DNA of 64,000 nt. It comes from a phage. Below the pieces are notes generated by a model, which was not told where the DNA came from, made no database searches, and saw only the letters and a program-made list of their open reading frames with translations. Of the stretch, positions 6,425 to 39,450 are shown one piece after another (position 1 is the first letter of the stretch; every line of letters begins with the position of its first letter). The stretch is taken from the NCBI GenBank assembly GCA_036930585.1, contig GCA_036930585.1_3066.1; one strand, written 5' to 3'. The translations under genes were made by a program, and so were the position numbers.

Positions 6425-6772
6425 TCAATACGGTTTAGCATCAAATTTTCTCTCAATTTCAGGTGTGAAATATAATTCTTTACCACGTTTGGAAAAGCGA
6501 CCAATAATATGATAATTATTCTCATCAAACATGATATTACCAATATCCATAGCTTTCAACCAAATATCGATATTTCTATCCAGCTTTATGTCAAAATTCC
6601 AATACGGAGAACTATTACCGAAAATACTGCAAGCGGATTCAGTGAAACAACTGCTATAAATCTTGTCTTTAGGAACTACTAATTGATAGACACCTTTAAT
6701 AAACTGAGGACCCTGCCACTTTGGCTGTTTCGTGTCTTTTTCTAATAGAATAGGGTAATAATTAAAATTCAT
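6425..6772 (-). CDS. Hypothetical protein (115 aa) inserted between frd and td
   Basis: Intact ORF filling a ~410-bp gap between frd stop and td start; no recognisable motif. Confidence 0.5.
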   Translation of the reverse strand: MNFNYYPILLEKDTKQPKWQGPQFIKGVYQLVVPKDKIYSSCFTESACSIFGNSSPYWNFDIKLDRNIDIWLKAMDIGNIMFDENNYHIIGRFSKRGKELYFTPEIERKFDAKPY

Positions 6773-25298: not shown

Positions 25299-26623
25299 TT
25301 GATTTCCTCTAAATCTTTGGTGTATTCTGTAACTACATCAGTAGTTTTCCAATATTCATTTTCTTCTTTTTTGGCTTTAGCTTCTTCAGCAAGTTTCTTT
25401 GCTTCGTCGGAAGTCATATGAAAAATGTTCATTCCAACTAGTTTATCAACATAAGAAGAATACATATCAATTTTAGAAAGTTCTTCGGTCAGTTCTTTGC
25501 GAGTTTTACCTTGTACAACAATTTCACCTGAAATTACTTTCTTAATGAAATGTGCCTTGGCAAAAGCTAAACGAAATGCTGATTCAGTTTCTTTGATTTT
25601 GTTATCAATTCGTTTTTGGACATAAGTTTTACGAACTTCAACGAAGTCTTTGATTAAATCAACTACATTATCGTAAACTTGCAGCTTTCCTTTCTCATTA
25701 ATGACGGTAATATTCTGGGAACGACGCTCAATCAACCCGAAGTCTTTCATAATTTTTGCATGGCGTTCTTCTTCATTATCGCTCAAAGAGTATTCTTTTC
25801 GGAATTTAACTTTGAAGCCAAAGCCATGCTCACCACAAGCATCATCCCATGTAATGAAGCCTTTATCTTCAAGTGGGTCTAAGATTTTACTCACGTAAGT
25901 TTCACGATCATACTTATATGGAATCTCAGTGATATGCATTTGAGTTCGTGAAGTAAACTTATATGTTCCACGAATTTCATATTGCCCATCAATTTCAACG
26001 ACTTCACCACGAAATTCTGGGAATTCTACCTTCGGTTTAGTTACTTTCTTTCCTTGAAGAGCTTGCAGTACAGCTTTCTTGACAGAAGAAACACTATGAG
26101 GAAGAATGTAAGTTGCATAACCAGTTGCAATACCGGAAACGCCATTAAGAAGAACAGTAGGAATAACAGGCAAATAGAAAGCAGGCGGAATGTGTTCTTT
26201 ATCTTGATGTACCGGAGCATATTCAGTATCTTTATATACGTTATAGAAATTTTTACTTACACGAGCAAAAATATAACGACTTGCTGCTGCCTTTTGGACA
26301 GTACGAGAACCAAAGTTTCCTTGACCGTCTAACAGAGGAAAGTTATTATTCCAAGTGTTAGCCATCAAAGCACCTGCGTCTTGCGCAGAGTTTTCGCCAT
26401 GATGATATCCAAGGTCCGCTACACCGCCTGCGATAGAAGCGAGTTTGTGAAACTTATCTTTATTTCCTCGTGCCAAATCAAGAGCTCGAGCAATAACAAA
26501 TCGTTGAACTGGCTTAAATCCATCAATCATATTTGGAATGGCACGATTTTCAACCGTGTACATAGCATAAGCCAATGCTTCATTATCAATGATACTTTTT
26601 AAATCACGATTATTCAGTTGCAT
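25295..26623 (-). CDS. 52: DNA topoisomerase II medium subunit gp52
   Basis: 442-aa ORF with GyrA-like active-site region. Confidence 0.95.
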   Translation of the reverse strand: MQLNNRDLKSIIDNEALAYAMYTVENRAIPNMIDGFKPVQRFVIARALDLARGNKDKFHKLASIAGGVADLGYHHGENSAQDAGALMANTWNNNFPLLDGQGNFGSRTVQKAAASRYIFARVSKNFYNVYKDTEYAPVHQDKEHIPPAFYLPVIPTVLLNGVSGIATGYATYILPHSVSSVKKAVLQALQGKKVTKPKVEFPEFRGEVVEIDGQYEIRGTYKFTSRTQMHITEIPYKYDRETYVSKILDPLEDKGFITWDDACGEHGFGFKVKFRKEYSLSDNEEERHAKIMKDFGLIERRSQNITVINEKGKLQVYDNVVDLIKDFVEVRKTYVQKRIDNKIKETESAFRLAFAKAHFIKKVISGEIVVQGKTRKELTEELSKIDMYSSYVDKLVGMNIFHMTSDEAKKLAEEAKAKKEENEYWKTTDVVTEYTKDLEEIK

Positions 26624-26627
26624 AAAT

Positions 26628-26768
26628 TTACCATACTAGTGAATGTAGTGCCATAATAACATCAGAAATGAAAAGCACGACTTGAATTAATCCGAACATT
26701 ATTCCGTAATATAATGCTATCAATAAAATAGCAAGGGCTAATGAATAGCCCAAGATTTTCTTAATCAT
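26628..26768 (-). CDS. Small membrane protein (46 aa; possibly ac-like)
   Basis: MIKKILGYSLALAILLIALYYG...; not in track (<60 aa). Confidence 0.35.
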   Translation of the reverse strand: MIKKILGYSLALAILLIALYYGIMFGLIQVVLFISDVIMALHSLVW

Positions 26769-26919
26769 TAGTAGATAACAACACAAATGTTAAATATGCA
26801 CACATACCCTGGGCTAAAGCTTGTGAAAACACACTGCTAGCATCGATACAGATAGTTAAAACACATGCTACTATCCAACAAATAAATGAAATAACTCCTA
26901 ATAATTTTGCGATATTCAT
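26761..26919 (-). CDS. Small membrane protein (52 aa)
   Basis: MNIAKLLGVISFICWIVACVL... with GAGGAAAATATG SD. Confidence 0.35.
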   Translation of the reverse strand: MNIAKLLGVISFICWIVACVLTICIDASSVFSQALAQGMCAYLTFVLLSTND

Positions 26920-26926
26920 ATTTTCC

Positions 26927-27007
26927 TCACTGGCGTCCGAAGACGCCTTTAGTTTTAAGATTATTACGATAGAACTGCATCACGTGTTCGTTGTGGAAAT
27001 TACTCAT
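26927..27007 (-). CDS. stp: Stp peptide (26 aa)
   Basis: Reads [26 protein letters not shown], the T4 Stp sequence as recalled; start overlaps ndd stop. Confidence 0.7.
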
Positions 27008-27465
27008 TAATATGCCTGCAAAACGAATTTAAAATTATCAGCCAACATACGGTTCATTTCTTCAAGTGTTTGATACTCAGAATGATGATTACGAGTAAAC
27101 GCTAAAGCTAGCTGTCCTTTTCCAAATCCCGTCGTCAGAGGTTTCATCTTAGAAGCAGGCAGATAAAATACTGTGTATACCATATTGTTATTTGCAATAG
27201 TACGTGCAAGCTGAGACCGACGTTGACGAATATGACTTAGAACTGCACTGAATCCTTGCTTAGAACGCTGATTACCTACATAAAATCGTGCAGACACGCA
27301 TGGATTACTAAATGGACGACCATCTAATTTACTCACTAAAAAGTAAAATCCAGGTTTAGATAAAAAGTCTTTATGCGGAGTTCCCAAAAACCATTCACCG
27401 TTCTTGATTGTACCAATAACAGTAGCGCCTGCATTATTCAAATCAGTAACAGTCATGTATTTCAT
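27007..27465 (-). CDS. ndd: Nucleoid disruption protein Ndd
   Basis: Start at ATG 27465 ([16 protein letters not shown]...) with GAGGAAA SD; ~151 aa. Confidence 0.85.
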
Positions 27466-27525
27466 ATTAATTTCCTCTAAATTATTTTCTACTCCAAGGC
27501 CGCATGAATACACACGGCCATTAAA

Positions 27526-27741
27526 TTAATCGTCGCAGTCGACGCTCAATTCCCAAAACTCTTCTACGGTATAAGTTTCAGTATCATTTTCAATACAGAA
27601 ACGTTCATTACTGTTATTTGCTAAAGTAGCATTAACTGTCGGTTTCTCGCTAGTGCTCTTAAGAGGTGAAATACGAATTAACTGATCACCGTTATCTAAA
27701 CAGAAAATTTCACCAACTTTTACATCTTTAAAGATTTTCAT
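27526..27741 (-). CDS. Hypothetical protein (71 aa)
   Basis: ORF track. Confidence 0.5.
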   Translation of the reverse strand: MKIFKDVKVGEIFCLDNGDQLIRISPLKSTSEKPTVNATLANNSNERFCIENDTETYTVEEFWELSVDCDD

Positions 27742-27749
27742 AATTCACC

Positions 27750-27860
27750 TCAAGGAATATAAAATCCGAATGCAGTTGTTGACCATCCCATCCAATATGG
27801 GAAATTTGCACCAATGTAAAACATGAGAATATAAAACCAACCGCTCAGCAAATTCATCAT
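27750..27860 (-). CDS. Small hydrophobic peptide (36 aa)
   Basis: MMNLLSGWFYILMFYIGANFPYW...; ATGA-coupled to upstream ORF. Confidence 0.3.
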   Translation of the reverse strand: MMNLLSGWFYILMFYIGANFPYWMGWSTTAFGFYIP

Positions 27861-28075
27861 TTTACACCATTCCAAATTGTTTCAACCACGGATTTTAAAC
27901 CATTTTGATGAATATCAATTCCGACTACCGTCATCAAATAAATTCCAACTACAACTGAACCTAAGGCAAAAATCAGCATGAAAATGAATAAAGCCGGAAA
28001 AATATTATCGAAAAACCATTCAATAAATGTAAAAGCACTGCGTTTACGCTTCATATTTTCCTCACATAAATCCAA
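27857..28075 (-). CDS. Small membrane protein (72 aa)
   Basis: ORF track; two hydrophobic segments. Confidence 0.45.
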   Translation of the reverse strand: MDLCEENMKRKRSAFTFIEWFFDNIFPALFIFMLIFALGSVVVGIYLMTVVGIDIHQNGLKSVVETIWNGVK

Positions 28076-28175
28076 AGTAAACGTTTAATACATTAATCAT
28101 TAAAACGATTGGGAATATACTCAAAACTATTAGTATTATAACTACATTCCATATAGCTTTAACAATCTTTTTCAT
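28062..28175 (-). CDS. Small membrane protein (37 aa)
   Basis: Start moved to ATG 28175 with CGGAGGAACAGAAA SD; track extension overlaps promoter. Confidence 0.35.
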   Translation of the reverse strand: MKKIVKAIWNVVIILIVLSIFPIVLMINVLNVYFGFM

Positions 28176-28203
28176 TTTCTGTTCCTCCGTAGTTGATAGG
28201 GTA

Positions 28204-28233
28204 ATAGTACCACGGAAGAACAGTCTTGTAAAC
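28204..28233 (-). promoter_or_regulatory. T4-type early promoter
   Basis: Minus strand GTTTACAAGACTGTTCTTCCGTGGTACTAT. Confidence 0.5.
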
Positions 28234-28418
28234 AACTTTTTTAAAAATATTCGTAATAAATGTGAATACCAACTACTACTGCCGAAACTTGTGCAACCCA
28301 CCATGCACACGCAATAAGTACAGAATTCAAAATTTTCATAATAACCTCATCACAAAAGTAAATGTTAAACAAATTACTGGAATACTAATTAACCAAACAA
28401 AACACCAACATAATGAAC

Positions 28419-28682
28419 TCATAGTTCAATCTCAACGATTTCCAAGTGTTTTTGTTTTATTGCCTTTTTAACACAATCATGGACTAAATATGACCATGAA
28501 TCATTATATTCTCCATTAACTAATCGTTGGAGATCTTCACGTGATGATAAGTAAGGTTGATCTGATTCCCATTTTGATAAAAATACTGCAGTAAAAATAT
28601 CTCCTTCATCTGTAGTTGAAGTCGTAAATGCAATAAATTCACCGGTAATTTTATGTTTAGCGTAATAAAATTTAAATTTCAT
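28419..28682 (-). CDS. Hypothetical protein (87 aa)
   Basis: Start moved to ATG 28682 (MKFKFYYAKHK...) with GGAGGAG SD. Confidence 0.45.
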   Translation of the reverse strand: MKFKFYYAKHKITGEFIAFTTSTTDEGDIFTAVFLSKWESDQPYLSSREDLQRLVNGEYNDSWSYLVHDCVKKAIKQKHLEIVEIEL

Positions 28683-28709
28683 TTTTACTCCTCCGTAGCT
28701 GATAGTTGT

Positions 28710-28739
28710 ATAGTACCACGGTCCTTGTGGTATGTAAAC
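28710..28739 (-). promoter_or_regulatory. T4-type early promoter
   Basis: Minus strand GTTTACATACCACAAGGACCGTGGTACTAT. Confidence 0.5.
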
Positions 28740-28755
28740 CATTTTGTGAAATTTT

Positions 28756-29313
28756 TTAAATAGAAAGATACCATCCGCTGTAGTTGCTTTTTCTTACAAC
28801 CTTACGAAGGTCTTCTCTGTCACCGATGAACTTCGGAGTGTACTGGATAACACCTGGATGAATTTCTTTAGTGTTGAATATAATTATACAGTCAGCGACT
28901 TGATGATTTAGAATGGGCCCTAGATTTATTCCAGAACCATATGGATACTCTCCGCTGCATCCTGTTGTCACCGAAATCCAACGTGAGTCAGTTTGATGTG
29001 TCTTAACTTCTACACGAAGCCCGCAGTATCTTGGATGCGCCAATACATCCCACGCGTATGTATATGGATCATCGACATCTTCTTGACCTTTATTAACATA
29101 CCCGCTTAGCCAATCTGCTACAAAAAACTCTGCGTATACAGCAATACGACATCTTTCAATAACTTCTGCTTTATCCTGGTTCGGGTTTTGTTTTAAAGAG
29201 TATCTTGCAGTATCAGCAATTTTGACCTTCATTTCGCTAGTCAAGTCACTGTTCGATAGGGTAAATGTCGGAATCTGAAATAGTCTCTGTAAACCCGGAT
29301 TCGTTTTCTGCAT
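28756..29313 (-). CDS. denB: Endonuclease IV (DenB)
   Basis: 185-aa ORF; length and position between ndd and rIIB. Confidence 0.85.
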   Translation of the reverse strand: MQKTNPGLQRLFQIPTFTLSNSDLTSEMKVKIADTARYSLKQNPNQDKAEVIERCRIAVYAEFFVADWLSGYVNKGQEDVDDPYTYAWDVLAHPRYCGLRVEVKTHQTDSRWISVTTGCSGEYPYGSGINLGPILNHQVADCIIIFNTKEIHPGVIQYTPKFIGDREDLRKVVRKSNYSGWYLSI

Positions 29314-29575
29314 TTAGACTTTCCTTTTTACCACTGAGATAAGCGTTATATACTTTAAGAGTGCCGTAATAAATTCGGTCATTTTCATCTAAAGACTCGC
29401 GGTCAAGTTCATCGAGCTCCTTTTTATCCATGACTATAACATCATTACAGTAAAGAAACCCAAGTTTTTCGTGACCAAACTCAAATTTATTACAGTACAC
29501 AATATTAGCGTGATGATTTCCGTGCAGTTTAATCTCTTTTATGTCGGAATCACCGATATTCATATAATAAATCAT
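29246..29575 (-). CDS. Hypothetical protein (109 aa)
   Basis: ORF track; 3' end overlaps denB start in another frame. Confidence 0.4.
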   Translation of the reverse strand: MIYYMNIGDSDIKEIKLHGNHHANIVYCNKFEFGHEKLGFLYCNDVIVMDKKELDELDRESLDENDRIYYGTLKVYNAYLSGKKESLNAENESGFTETISDSDIYPIEQ

Positions 29576-37610: not shown

Positions 37611-37779
37611 AATTTCCTCATTAATTGAACATTGGAGCGATGCGTTTCAGAAGAGTAGCAGCACCTTTGGCAAATTTTCCATTTTATTCTCCAAGTTGTT
37701 TTCTGTATCAGTAGTTGATATTGATATAGTACCATAATCAACTACTGATGTATATAGTTTTATGAAAAAATTTTAAACT

Positions 37780-39420: not shown

Positions 39421-39450
39421 ATAATACCACAACTAACCGAGGAAGTAAAC
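39421..39450 (-). promoter_or_regulatory. T4-type early promoter
   Basis: Minus strand GTTTAC...TATTAT. Confidence 0.45.

Follow-up and report, generated by a model that had tools for sequence, protein, structure and literature searches.

The early genes around the nucleoid-disruption gene ndd of phage T4 (NC_000866, positions 165209-166996) were already on the T4 map in the 1990s, and there is separate literature on Stp, on Ndd and on Ac; little is added here to the annotation. The block belongs to the 'D region' that is lost in sa deletions, and T4 can lose the whole of it in such deletions and stay viable. In sa-delta-9, the genes from 52.1 through denB are missing; the phage is viable and no longer stimulates phosphatidylglycerol synthesis (PMC6071114). 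In T4, the transcripts of the block all fall into the early class. The primary role of Stp is anti-restriction against type Ic enzymes, and the activation of PrrC by Stp is a counter-move of the host (PMC3014915). Loss-of-function mutations of Stp cluster in residues 4-14, within the N-terminal 18 residues (Penner et al. 1995, reviewed in PMC3014915). The ac phenotype, acriflavine sensitivity, has been known since the 1960s, and a block of AcrAB-TolC has recently been proposed to underlie it (bioRxiv 10.1101/2025.06.30.662393; PMC13250531); this mechanism is a preprint proposal (bioRxiv 10.1101/2025.06.30.662393). In the hyperplastic regions of T4-type phages, small accessory genes are preceded by repeated PeSL cassettes, which combine an AT-rich tract and a strong early promoter with a Shine-Dalgarno site and a start codon (PMC2839356, PMC4122927).

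The window, the whole stretch of 64,000 nt that was analysed, is a Tequatrovirus (T4-like) genome. The region studied is 98% identical in DNA sequence to many Tequatrovirus genomes, and between positions 26628 and 28422 it carries the T4 genes 52.1, ac, stp, ndd, ndd.1, ndd.2, ndd.2a/ndd.3, ndd.4, ndd.5 and ndd.6 in the T4 order on the minus strand, on which all features described below are located. The block consists of real genes that are already known and annotated around ndd in T4 and its near relatives. T4 has the same gene order, strand, overlaps and promoters, and every product is 93-100% identical to its T4 counterpart at the amino-acid level, Stp and Ndd.5 being identical. The differences are that ndd.2a and ndd.3 are one 65-aa gene here, that Ac has one additional Thr and Ndd one additional residue, and that ndd.4 starts at a conserved MKK, whereas the call in the T4 reference is longer. 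It is highly probable that the block corresponds, in this Tequatrovirus, to the early-gene block 52.1-ndd.6 of T4.

A preliminary description had placed a cluster of small hydrophobic peptide genes and stp around ndd, and the T4 gene order and PHROG family matches at full length for every product confirm this. It had also recognised ndd, stp and the tiny membrane-peptide genes correctly, in agreement with an uncharged stretch of 20-36 residues in seven of the nine small products, the exceptions being Stp and Ndd.1. Four reading frames that it had listed as lying below an ORF-track cut-off are exact minus-strand gene calls, namely 52.1 (26628..26768), ac (26761..26919), ndd.2 (27750..27860) and ndd.4 (28062..28175), but these frames are not unannotated: T4 has names for all of them, and Pfam or PHROG families exist for them. 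The end of the cluster had been set at 28310, which is wrong; it lies at 28422, or at 28682 if an upstream 87-aa ORF is counted. The position 28310 results from an 82-aa ORF that is a GTG-extended reading of ndd.4; as a gene this ORF is over-extended, crossing the ndd.4 promoter and halving ndd.5. Likewise, the 72-aa ORF that marked the upper size limit is an over-extended, TTG-start version of the 65-aa gene.

Chance alone often produces ORFs of 26-50 aa, about five arising per 1.8 kb in shuffled sequences, and the very small ORFs, or some of them, could be chance frames in AT-rich DNA that are annotated by T4 precedent and never translated. Mass spectrometry of T4 detected neither the hydrophobic peptides nor Stp, Ndd and Ndd.1 being the only products of the block found (Ndd.1 as an early protein); GeneMarkS and Glimmer did not predict 52.1 and stp in RB32; 52.1 and ndd.4 give no clean pN/pS signal; and T4 'ndd.3' proved to be an artefact. 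Against this stands the tiling of one strand. Between 26628 and 28422, ATG-initiated ORFs with a minimum length of 26 aa occupy 95% of the minus strand and 12% of the plus strand, whereas 1000 shuffles that preserved the dinucleotides gave 31 +/- 11%, with 69% as the maximum. Every start has either a Shine-Dalgarno site or a coupling overlap: seven are preceded by GAGG or GGAGG at a suitable distance, and the remaining four overlap an upstream stop codon. Variation is concentrated in the third positions of codons, and eight genes (ac, stp, ndd, ndd.1, ndd.2, the 65-aa gene, ndd.5 and ndd.6) have a pN/pS of 0.01-0.18, the alternative frames generally giving values near or above 1. The Pfam matches (DUF7396, PF08133, PF06591, DUF7248) are well above their cut-offs. 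Furthermore, 52.1, stp, ndd.4 and ndd.6 recur in other Tevenvirinae genera, often unannotated, with 44-89% amino-acid identity across genera for 52.1, ndd.4 and ndd.6, and both stp and ac have genetic phenotypes. Chance reading frames are thus an extremely improbable explanation, and the orphan peptides are real genes that are often missed or misnamed by automatic annotation.

Among the genes treated in this way are, in T2, stp and ac; in Bp7, stp, ndd.4 and ndd.6; and in PhAPEC2, ndd.6. A scan of IMG/VR with Ndd gave only five near-identical loci, and the diversity was therefore taken from GenBank phage records. An NCBIfam search of the products gave nothing significant, an Rfam scan of 26000-29500 had no matches at E <= 1, no paper on T4 ribosome profiling was found, and neither literature searches for the ndd.N gene names nor two papers on genome-wide T4 essentiality yielded anything specific to these genes. 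In an all-against-all BLASTP comparison of the hydrophobic peptides, the only match was between the two ac allele types; judged by their sequences, the hydrophobic peptides are not a duplicated family.

The stp gene (26927..27007) lies between ndd and ac as in T4, and the stop codon of ndd runs into its ATG (TAATG at 27007). It encodes a basic soluble peptide of 26 aa with a pN/pS of 0.01. The peptide scores 75.3 bits against PF08133 (Pfam 'anticodon nuclease activator'; cut-off 25) and shares 26 of 26 residues with T4 Stp, including the N-terminal 18, so that the two proteins do not differ at all. The preliminary description had correctly stated that Stp activates PrrC in T4. With the function transferred from T4 by sequence identity, Stp of this phage would inhibit type Ic restriction enzymes and activate PrrC: it would bind to and inhibit enzymes such as EcoprrI and EcoR124I, and in prr+ hosts this inhibition would release the latent PrrC tRNA-Lys anticodon nuclease. 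The tRNA-repair genes pnk and rnl1 of the phage are located outside the window. The last six codons of stp (GVFGRQ) form a C(UUCG)G tetraloop hairpin, GGCGUCUUCGGACGCC, at 26932..26947, with a minimum free energy of -12.3 kcal/mol and a z-score of -2.7, and this hairpin is placed 3 nt upstream of the ac Shine-Dalgarno site. It is kept in 13 of 14 related Tequatrovirus sequences and is replaced in T2, where the C-terminus of Stp is also different.

The ac gene is preceded by a GAGG Shine-Dalgarno site, has a pN/pS of 0.06 and encodes a 52-aa protein that matches phrog_2501 at 3.7e-25 over residues 1-51 and is 96% identical to T4 Ac. Two hydrophobic helices, seen as uncharged stretches at residues 6-25 and 27-51, are joined at D26-A27. 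Ac of this phage has G38, the residue whose replacement by Arg gives resistance (bioRxiv 10.1101/2025.06.30.662393; PMC13250531), and carries an extra Thr before the C-terminal ND as in the PP01-type allele, which is reported to leave the phenotype unchanged (bioRxiv 10.1101/2025.06.30.662393). The name 'acridine resistance protein' is a misnomer, because wild-type ac confers sensitivity. The near-identity to the protein described in the literature suggests that Ac sensitises infected cells to acriflavine here too: as a two-helix inner-membrane peptide, it would make infected cells accumulate acridines. AcrZ, a small inner-membrane regulator of bacteria, is comparable in its way of working only. 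A size of 28-65 aa, a single or double hydrophobic helix and action via a larger membrane machine are shared, whereas there is no sequence relationship between AcrZ and these peptides, none of which, Ac included, matches AcrZ or another cellular small-protein family in Pfam at E <= 1. A binding partner has been proposed for Ac alone.

The ndd gene (27007..27465) encodes the nucleoid disruption protein of 152 aa, which matches PF06591 with 312.9 bits (cut-off 25) and is 95% identical to T4 Ndd. From this near-identity to the protein described in the literature, Ndd would disrupt the host nucleoid. Upstream of it, ndd.1 (27526..27741) has a GAGGTGA Shine-Dalgarno site and a pN/pS of 0.09 and encodes a 71-aa product that belongs to phrog_2183. 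Ndd.1 is an acidic soluble protein with a pI of 4.3; it is neither hydrophobic nor a membrane peptide. An AlphaFold2 model of Ndd.1, built from a shallow alignment of sequences with at least 77% identity, is all-beta at low confidence (pLDDT 61), which is too weak to serve for a fold search. In some annotation Ndd.1 is misnamed 'naphthalene 1,2-dioxygenase'.

The functions of the small products had been described as largely unknown, which holds for 52.1, ndd.2, the 65-aa gene, ndd.4, ndd.5 and ndd.6 but not for Ac, which has a phenotype and a mechanistic proposal, or for Stp, which has an anti-restriction role. The 52.1 gene encodes a hydrophobic membrane peptide of 46 aa (phrog_3595) that matches DUF7396 with 78.3 bits (gathering score 27), residues 1-46 aligning to the 46-position model. 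It is 93% identical to T4 gp52.1, 89% to the Bp7 protein and 70% to the PhAPEC2 protein. Its pN/pS of 0.30 is ambiguous, as one other frame gives the same value. Since 52.1 has no Shine-Dalgarno site and shares its first 8 nt with the end of ac, its translation is probably coupled to that of ac. Ndd.2 is a 36-aa product (phrog_4135, pN/pS 0.12) with zero charged residues and 33% aromatic residues, and the start of its gene overlaps the upstream stop codon (ATGA).

The 65-aa gene (27857..28054), which corresponds to T4 'ndd.3' plus 'ndd.2a', has a GAGG Shine-Dalgarno site and a pN/pS of 0.11, and its product matches DUF7248 with 68.1 bits (gathering score 27; model positions 4-57 of 58). This protein has KRKR at its N-terminus, then an uncharged segment at residues 17-46 and an amphipathic C-terminal tail, and its predicted topology is N-in, single-pass. 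Basic N-termini are also found in 52.1 and Ndd.4. The reading frame is continuous in 14 of 14 sequences other than the T4 reference (T2: in-frame nonsense codon) and is intact in re-sequenced T4; on this comparison, T4 'ndd.3' is a false gene that results from a one-base error in the T4 reference genome.

Ndd.4 is a 37-aa member of phrog_3098, in which the N-terminal MKKIVK is followed by an uncharged stretch of 31 residues. Only five sites vary in ndd.4, all non-synonymous and none at a third position, so that the pN/pS test is not decisive; its status as a gene is based on the GGAGG Shine-Dalgarno site, the PHROG family and an unannotated homologue in the Dhakavirus Bp7 that is 58% identical. 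The ndd.5 gene (28241..28339) has a GAGG Shine-Dalgarno site and encodes 32 aa with one hydrophobic stretch at residues 3-29 (phrog_5011); 10 of its 11 variable sites are at the third codon position, and its pN/pS is 0.05. The ndd.6 gene (28336..28422) encodes 28 aa with one hydrophobic stretch (phrog_8851, pN/pS 0.18), and it is linked to the 87-aa ORF upstream by an ATGA in which its start and the stop codon of that ORF overlap. Homologues of ndd.6 in Bp7 and PhAPEC2 are unannotated, 44-50% identical and in the same coupled position. The 'predicted outer membrane' labels given in T4 to ndd.2, ndd.5 and ndd.6 were rejected as prediction artefacts; the segments concerned are short, alpha-helical and hydrophobic.

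It had been suggested that the small peptides may include superinfection-exclusion factors; such factors would block DNA entry or receptor function of later phages. Early expression and a predicted envelope location are compatible with such a role, as is a lipobox-like L-I-A-C at residues 8-11 of Ndd.5, reminiscent of small exclusion lipoproteins of other phages. As a signal peptide, however, the segment before the Cys would have only 10 residues, too short to span the membrane, and the putative mature part is itself a hydrophobic helix, so that Ndd.5 was rejected as a lipoprotein. Exclusion in T4 maps to imm and sp, elsewhere in the genome. None of the products matched an exclusion family in Pfam (E <= 1), PHROGs or NCBIfam, and the suggestion found no support. 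Moreover, the sa-delta-9 paper, in which the whole block is removed, reports the loss of phosphatidylglycerol stimulation and leaves exclusion unmentioned (PMC6071114). An exclusion function of these peptides is thus considered very unlikely.

The promoter architecture of the block is as described in PMC2988021. The T4 early-promoter motif has two perfect matches in the region and 10 in the window, all on the minus strand, compared with 0.19 expected. A T4-type early promoter for ndd.4 (28233..28204) consists of an A-tract, GTTTACA, 13 nt and GTGGTACTAT. A second one (28710..28739), 80% identical to the ndd.4 promoter region, precedes the 87-aa soluble ORF (28419..28682), which has a GGAGG Shine-Dalgarno site and heads the ndd.6-ndd.5 unit. 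Homologues of this ORF occur at 11 of 16 related loci compared, including Bp7 and PhAPEC2. T4 has lost the ORF by a deletion and keeps its last codons alone, as a remnant ending in ...KIAEIEL, whereas the ORF here has its own early promoter. Host sigma-70 RNA polymerase would transcribe the block leftward directly after infection, as suggested by the sequence and supported by the T4 transcript data. Transcription would start at the strong UP/-35/TGn/-10 early promoters at 28739 and 28233, and each of the end-to-end genes would be translated either with a GAGG or GGAGG site of its own or through coupling to the gene before it.

The two promoters belong to elements that resemble PeSL cassettes (28233..28173 and 28739..28680), each with an AT-rich tract, the promoter, a Shine-Dalgarno site and the start codon of a small accessory gene, and insertions and deletions between relatives adjoin these elements, as in other hyperplastic regions. 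The PeSL papers describe a terminator-like stem-loop upstream of the promoter, whereas a terminator scan found none upstream of either promoter here, and the only strong stem is formed by a promoter spacer and the downstream Shine-Dalgarno site. Within the element 28179..28233, the spacer of the ndd.4 promoter can, in the folding model, pair over 15 bp with the Shine-Dalgarno region of ndd.4 itself (stem-loop 28223..28179; -22.7 kcal/mol, z -4.9; duplex z -6.2).

Such repeated cassettes raise the possibility that the block is mainly evolutionary cargo, namely ORFan cassettes that are shuffled at PeSL-type promoters and whose individual peptides have little or no function. This fits the literature on PeSL (PMC2839356, PMC4122927), the repetition of the promoter regions and the variable gene content: the 87-aa ORF is missing from T4, Shfl2 and ESh26 have acquired an ORF of 57 aa with two helices exactly between ndd and stp, the ac allele of RB32 and Shfl2 is of the RB69 type, and Mosigvirus lacks stp and ndd.2-ndd.5. 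However, most of the genes are under purifying selection, and 52.1 and ndd.6 persist across three genera. Modular mobility explains the distribution of the genes but not their maintenance, and it is compatible with a functional early-gene block rather than an alternative to it; cargo as the main explanation is considered unlikely.

As components of the counterpart of the T4 early block, 52.1, Ndd.2, the 65-aa Ndd.2a/3, Ndd.4, Ndd.5 and Ndd.6 would be alpha-helical inner-membrane micro-proteins of 28-65 aa, kept by purifying selection and dispensable in the laboratory. By analogy with the proposal for Ac, we infer that these six orphan peptides most likely act by binding to and modulating host envelope proteins. 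The orphans are early, predicted to be embedded in the membrane, under purifying selection and mutually unrelated, and they are encoded inside the mapped sa-delta-9 interval. A more specific and rather doubtful idea is that at least one orphan may be a dedicated modulator of a host inner-membrane enzyme or transporter, and that one may be the sa-delta-9 factor that stimulates phosphatidylglycerol synthesis after T4 infection. The six membrane micro-proteins, a compact and dispensable set, would be the first candidates to consider for those membrane phenotypes of sa deletions that are still unmapped.

The genome of the window is T4-like (Tequatrovirus), and the region 26400-28500 shares 98% DNA identity with many T4-type phages of Escherichia, Shigella and Yersinia, with 493 records spanning at least 80% of it. 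Comparison with the annotated T4 reference and phage JK08 assigns the ORFs, all on the minus strand, one-to-one to T4 genes: 52.1 (26628..26768, 46 aa), ac (26761..26919, 52 aa), stp (26927..27007, 26 aa), ndd (27007..27465, 152 aa), ndd.1 (27526..27741, 71 aa), ndd.2 (27750..27860, 36 aa), one gene comprising T4 ndd.2a and ndd.3 (27857..28054, 65 aa), ndd.4 (28062..28175, 37 aa), ndd.5 (28241..28339, 32 aa) and ndd.6 (28336..28422, 28 aa). The 52.1-ndd.6 block is already known and annotated. A preliminary description had recognized a cluster of tiny genes around ndd and stp; the cluster is confirmed, the interpretation of the block is supported, and the four coordinate pairs quoted for 52.1, ac, ndd.2 and ndd.4 agree exactly with the gene calls. 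Its cluster end at 28310 and upper size of 72 aa came from reading two ORFs as extended to TTG or GTG codons, and the true end is 28422. Many phage and E. coli GenBank records label Ndd.1 homologues as naphthalene 1,2-dioxygenase, and one Ac homologue is labelled as a sugar ABC transporter permease; both labels are propagated annotation errors.

ORFs of at least 26 aa starting with ATG cover 95% of the minus strand and 12% of the plus strand, compared with 31 ± 11% (maximum 69%) in 1000 dinucleotide-preserving shuffles. Properly spaced GAGG or GGAGG sites precede ac, ndd, ndd.1, the 65-aa gene, ndd.4, ndd.5 and an 87-aa ORF (28419..28682, minus strand), and the starts of 52.1, stp, ndd.2 and ndd.6 overlap the stop codon of the preceding gene, the usual layout for translational coupling. 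Over 15 Tequatrovirus sequences, pN/pS is 0.06 for ac, 0.01 for stp, 0.12 for ndd, 0.09 for ndd.1, 0.12 for ndd.2, 0.11 for the 65-aa gene, 0.05 for ndd.5 and 0.18 for ndd.6, and is generally about 1 or above in the two alternative frames. The value of 0.30 for 52.1 does not settle its coding status; 52.1 retains 70-89% identity in other genera, and ndd.4 retains 58% in another genus. Dhakavirus Bp7 and Mosigvirus PhAPEC2 both have an unannotated ndd.6-like ORF of 44-50% identity that is likewise coupled to the 87-aa ORF ahead of it, and stp, too, is present without annotation in Bp7. All products have full-length matches to PHROG families, and four exceed the Pfam threshold (DUF7396, PF08133, PF06591 and DUF7248).

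The 87-aa ORF encodes a soluble product, is served by an early promoter of its own and a GGAGG site, and is translationally coupled to ndd.6. It is present in most of the Tequatrovirus sequences compared, highly diverged (55-57% identity), and in Bp7 and PhAPEC2, but T4 has lost it except for the C-terminal codons ...KIAEIEL. Shfl2 (L012 795-968) and ESh26 (L014 801-974) carry an extra 57-aa two-helix hydrophobic ORF (MKALFVMGYLLVLALF...) inserted precisely where ndd ends and stp begins, with both stop/start overlaps preserved, and this slot seems open to small membrane-peptide genes. The ac allele of RB32 (L003 962-1117) and Shfl2 (L012 562-714) has about 45% identity to the T4-type allele and is nearer to that of RB69 and Mosigvirus. 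Its neighbours 52.1 and stp are nearly identical, making this a mosaic in which one gene of 150 bp has been replaced.

One G is missing from the T4 reference in codon 2 or 3 of the 65-aa gene (28020-28075, minus strand; 6549-6650 in the T4 NC_000866 locus), and this deletion splits the gene into 'ndd.3' and a truncated 'ndd.2a'. Among the matches listed, the perfect T4-reference 60-mer occurs only in X75802, the original deposit, and in AF158101 and NC_000866, the reference records derived from it. The remaining records listed carry the extra base, as do the re-sequenced T4 records KJ477684, HM137666, OZ209023 and OZ209057; in re-sequenced T4 strains such as KJ477684 and HM137666 the 65-aa protein, Ndd.2a/3, is intact. 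T4 'ndd.3' is an artefact; the reference probably lacks the G through a sequencing error, and annotation and omics tables still carry the split. The sequenced T2 (AP018813, L011) has in-frame stops at codon 11 of ac (565-717) and codon 33 of the 65-aa gene (1668-1862), and its record leaves 52.1, ac, stp and most ndd.N genes unannotated.

Two T4-type early promoters on the minus strand, at 28739..28710 and 28233..28204, are perfect copies of the pattern (A-tract, GTTTACA, 13 nt, GTGGTACTAT). Their architecture is the UP/-35/TGn/-10 type known from T4 early promoters (PMC2988021). Where 0.19 matches to the pattern would be expected, the window has 10, every one of them on the minus strand. Tryptic mass spectrometry detects tiny hydrophobic peptides poorly, so that their non-detection in T4 does not argue against translation. 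The T4 transcripts of all block genes are classed as early, and only Ndd and Ndd.1 were detected as proteins, 52.1, Ac, Stp and Ndd.2-Ndd.6 being entered as 'NA' (Wolfram-Schauerte et al. 2022, Supplementary Table S2). A literature search found no ribosome-profiling study of T4.

Over 15 bp, the ndd.4 promoter spacer can pair with the region of the ndd.4 Shine-Dalgarno site (28179-28233, minus strand), in a stem of -22.7 kcal/mol (z -4.9; duplex z -6.2 against shuffled spacers). RNA read through from upstream would mask the Shine-Dalgarno site and hide ndd.4 from translation, and RNA begun at the proximal promoter would lack the 5' arm, leaving the site unmasked. Of nine early promoters of the window, three show such spacer-to-leader pairing, which in two of them covers the Shine-Dalgarno site; it is equally strong at 39421-39450 and 37726-37755. 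Among 15 phages, variation in the stem is one-sided and mostly pairing-preserving, mainly U/C opposite G. In the published PeSL promoter cassettes of T4-type hyperplastic regions (PMC2839356, PMC4122927), a terminator stem lies upstream of the promoter, whereas here the spacer itself pairs with the Shine-Dalgarno region, an arrangement for which no description was found in these PeSL papers. In the same 15 phages, ndd.4 has no variable third codon position, against 10-22 in neighbouring genes, and its only five variable sites are all non-synonymous and conservative. It lies in a diversity trough (27970-28150; nucleotide diversity down to 0.01-0.02), and the adjoining promoter is more variable. 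A recent sweep, recombinational homogenisation or nucleotide-level constraint are possible explanations of the trough.

The last six stp codons (GVFGRQ) form a GGCGUC-UUCG-GACGCC hairpin with a C(UUCG)G tetraloop (26932-26947, minus strand), placed 3 nt ahead of the Shine-Dalgarno site of ac; read on the plus strand, the palindrome is followed by a T-rich run, giving it a terminator-like look. In T2 the hairpin is absent and the C-terminus of Stp differs, in agreement with published data that the C-terminal eight residues of Stp are dispensable. The ndd.1-ndd intergenic region (27466-27525, minus strand) contains a conserved GC-rich palindrome (GGCCGYRU...AUGCGGCC) with no U-run after it; in some phages both arms carry base changes that look compensatory.

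The small ORFs had been described as mostly transmembrane peptides. This holds for seven of the nine small products, which have uncharged stretches of 20-36 residues, but not for Stp, which is basic and soluble, or Ndd.1, which is acidic and soluble. The N-termini of 52.1, the 65-aa protein and Ndd.4 carry 2-4 basic residues, predicting an N-in orientation. In Ac, D26-A27 joins two hydrophobic helices, and Ndd.2 has no charged residue and is one-third aromatic. An all-against-all comparison found no relatedness among the peptides. The 'predicted outer membrane' labels of T4 do not fit short alpha-helical hydrophobic segments, and we infer that the hydrophobic products are inner-membrane micro-proteins.

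The sequence itself shows the gene identities and promoters, the coupling, the purifying selection and the hydrophobic character of the products; the functions of Stp, Ndd and Ac are transferred from the literature by identity. Stp, identical here to T4 Stp and unchanged both in its conserved first 18 residues and at the critical positions 4-14, would inhibit type Ic restriction and thereby release PrrC. In agreement with the role given in the preliminary description, T4 Stp is necessary and sufficient for activation of the latent tRNA-Lys anticodon nuclease PrrC, which it achieves through binding to EcoprrI, the type Ic restriction enzyme with which the nuclease is associated; EcoR124I is a further target of its inhibition, whereas type Ia enzymes are not affected (reviewed by Uzan and Miller, PMC3014915), so that Stp is foremost an anti-restriction peptide. 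Ndd would disrupt the nucleoid, and Ac would cause acridine accumulation. Loss of ac makes T4 acriflavine-resistant and Ac expression sensitises E. coli to acriflavine; Ac has been proposed to enter the membrane and obstruct AcrAB-TolC (2025 preprint, bioRxiv 10.1101/2025.06.30.662393), a view restated in PMC13250531. Here, Ac retains G38 and carries the additional Thr that has been reported for PP01.

Functions of the small peptides had been called largely unknown, which holds for the six orphan peptides 52.1, Ndd.2, Ndd.2a/3, Ndd.4, Ndd.5 and Ndd.6. They match no exclusion-type or other known family in Pfam, PHROGs or NCBIfam, leaving the suggested superinfection exclusion without support. 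The T4 sa-delta-9 deletion, which removes everything from 52.1 to denB, roughly halves the phage yield without loss of viability and abolishes the infection-induced stimulation of phosphatidylglycerol synthesis (PMC6071114). The six orphan peptides may act as inner-membrane modulators of host envelope proteins.
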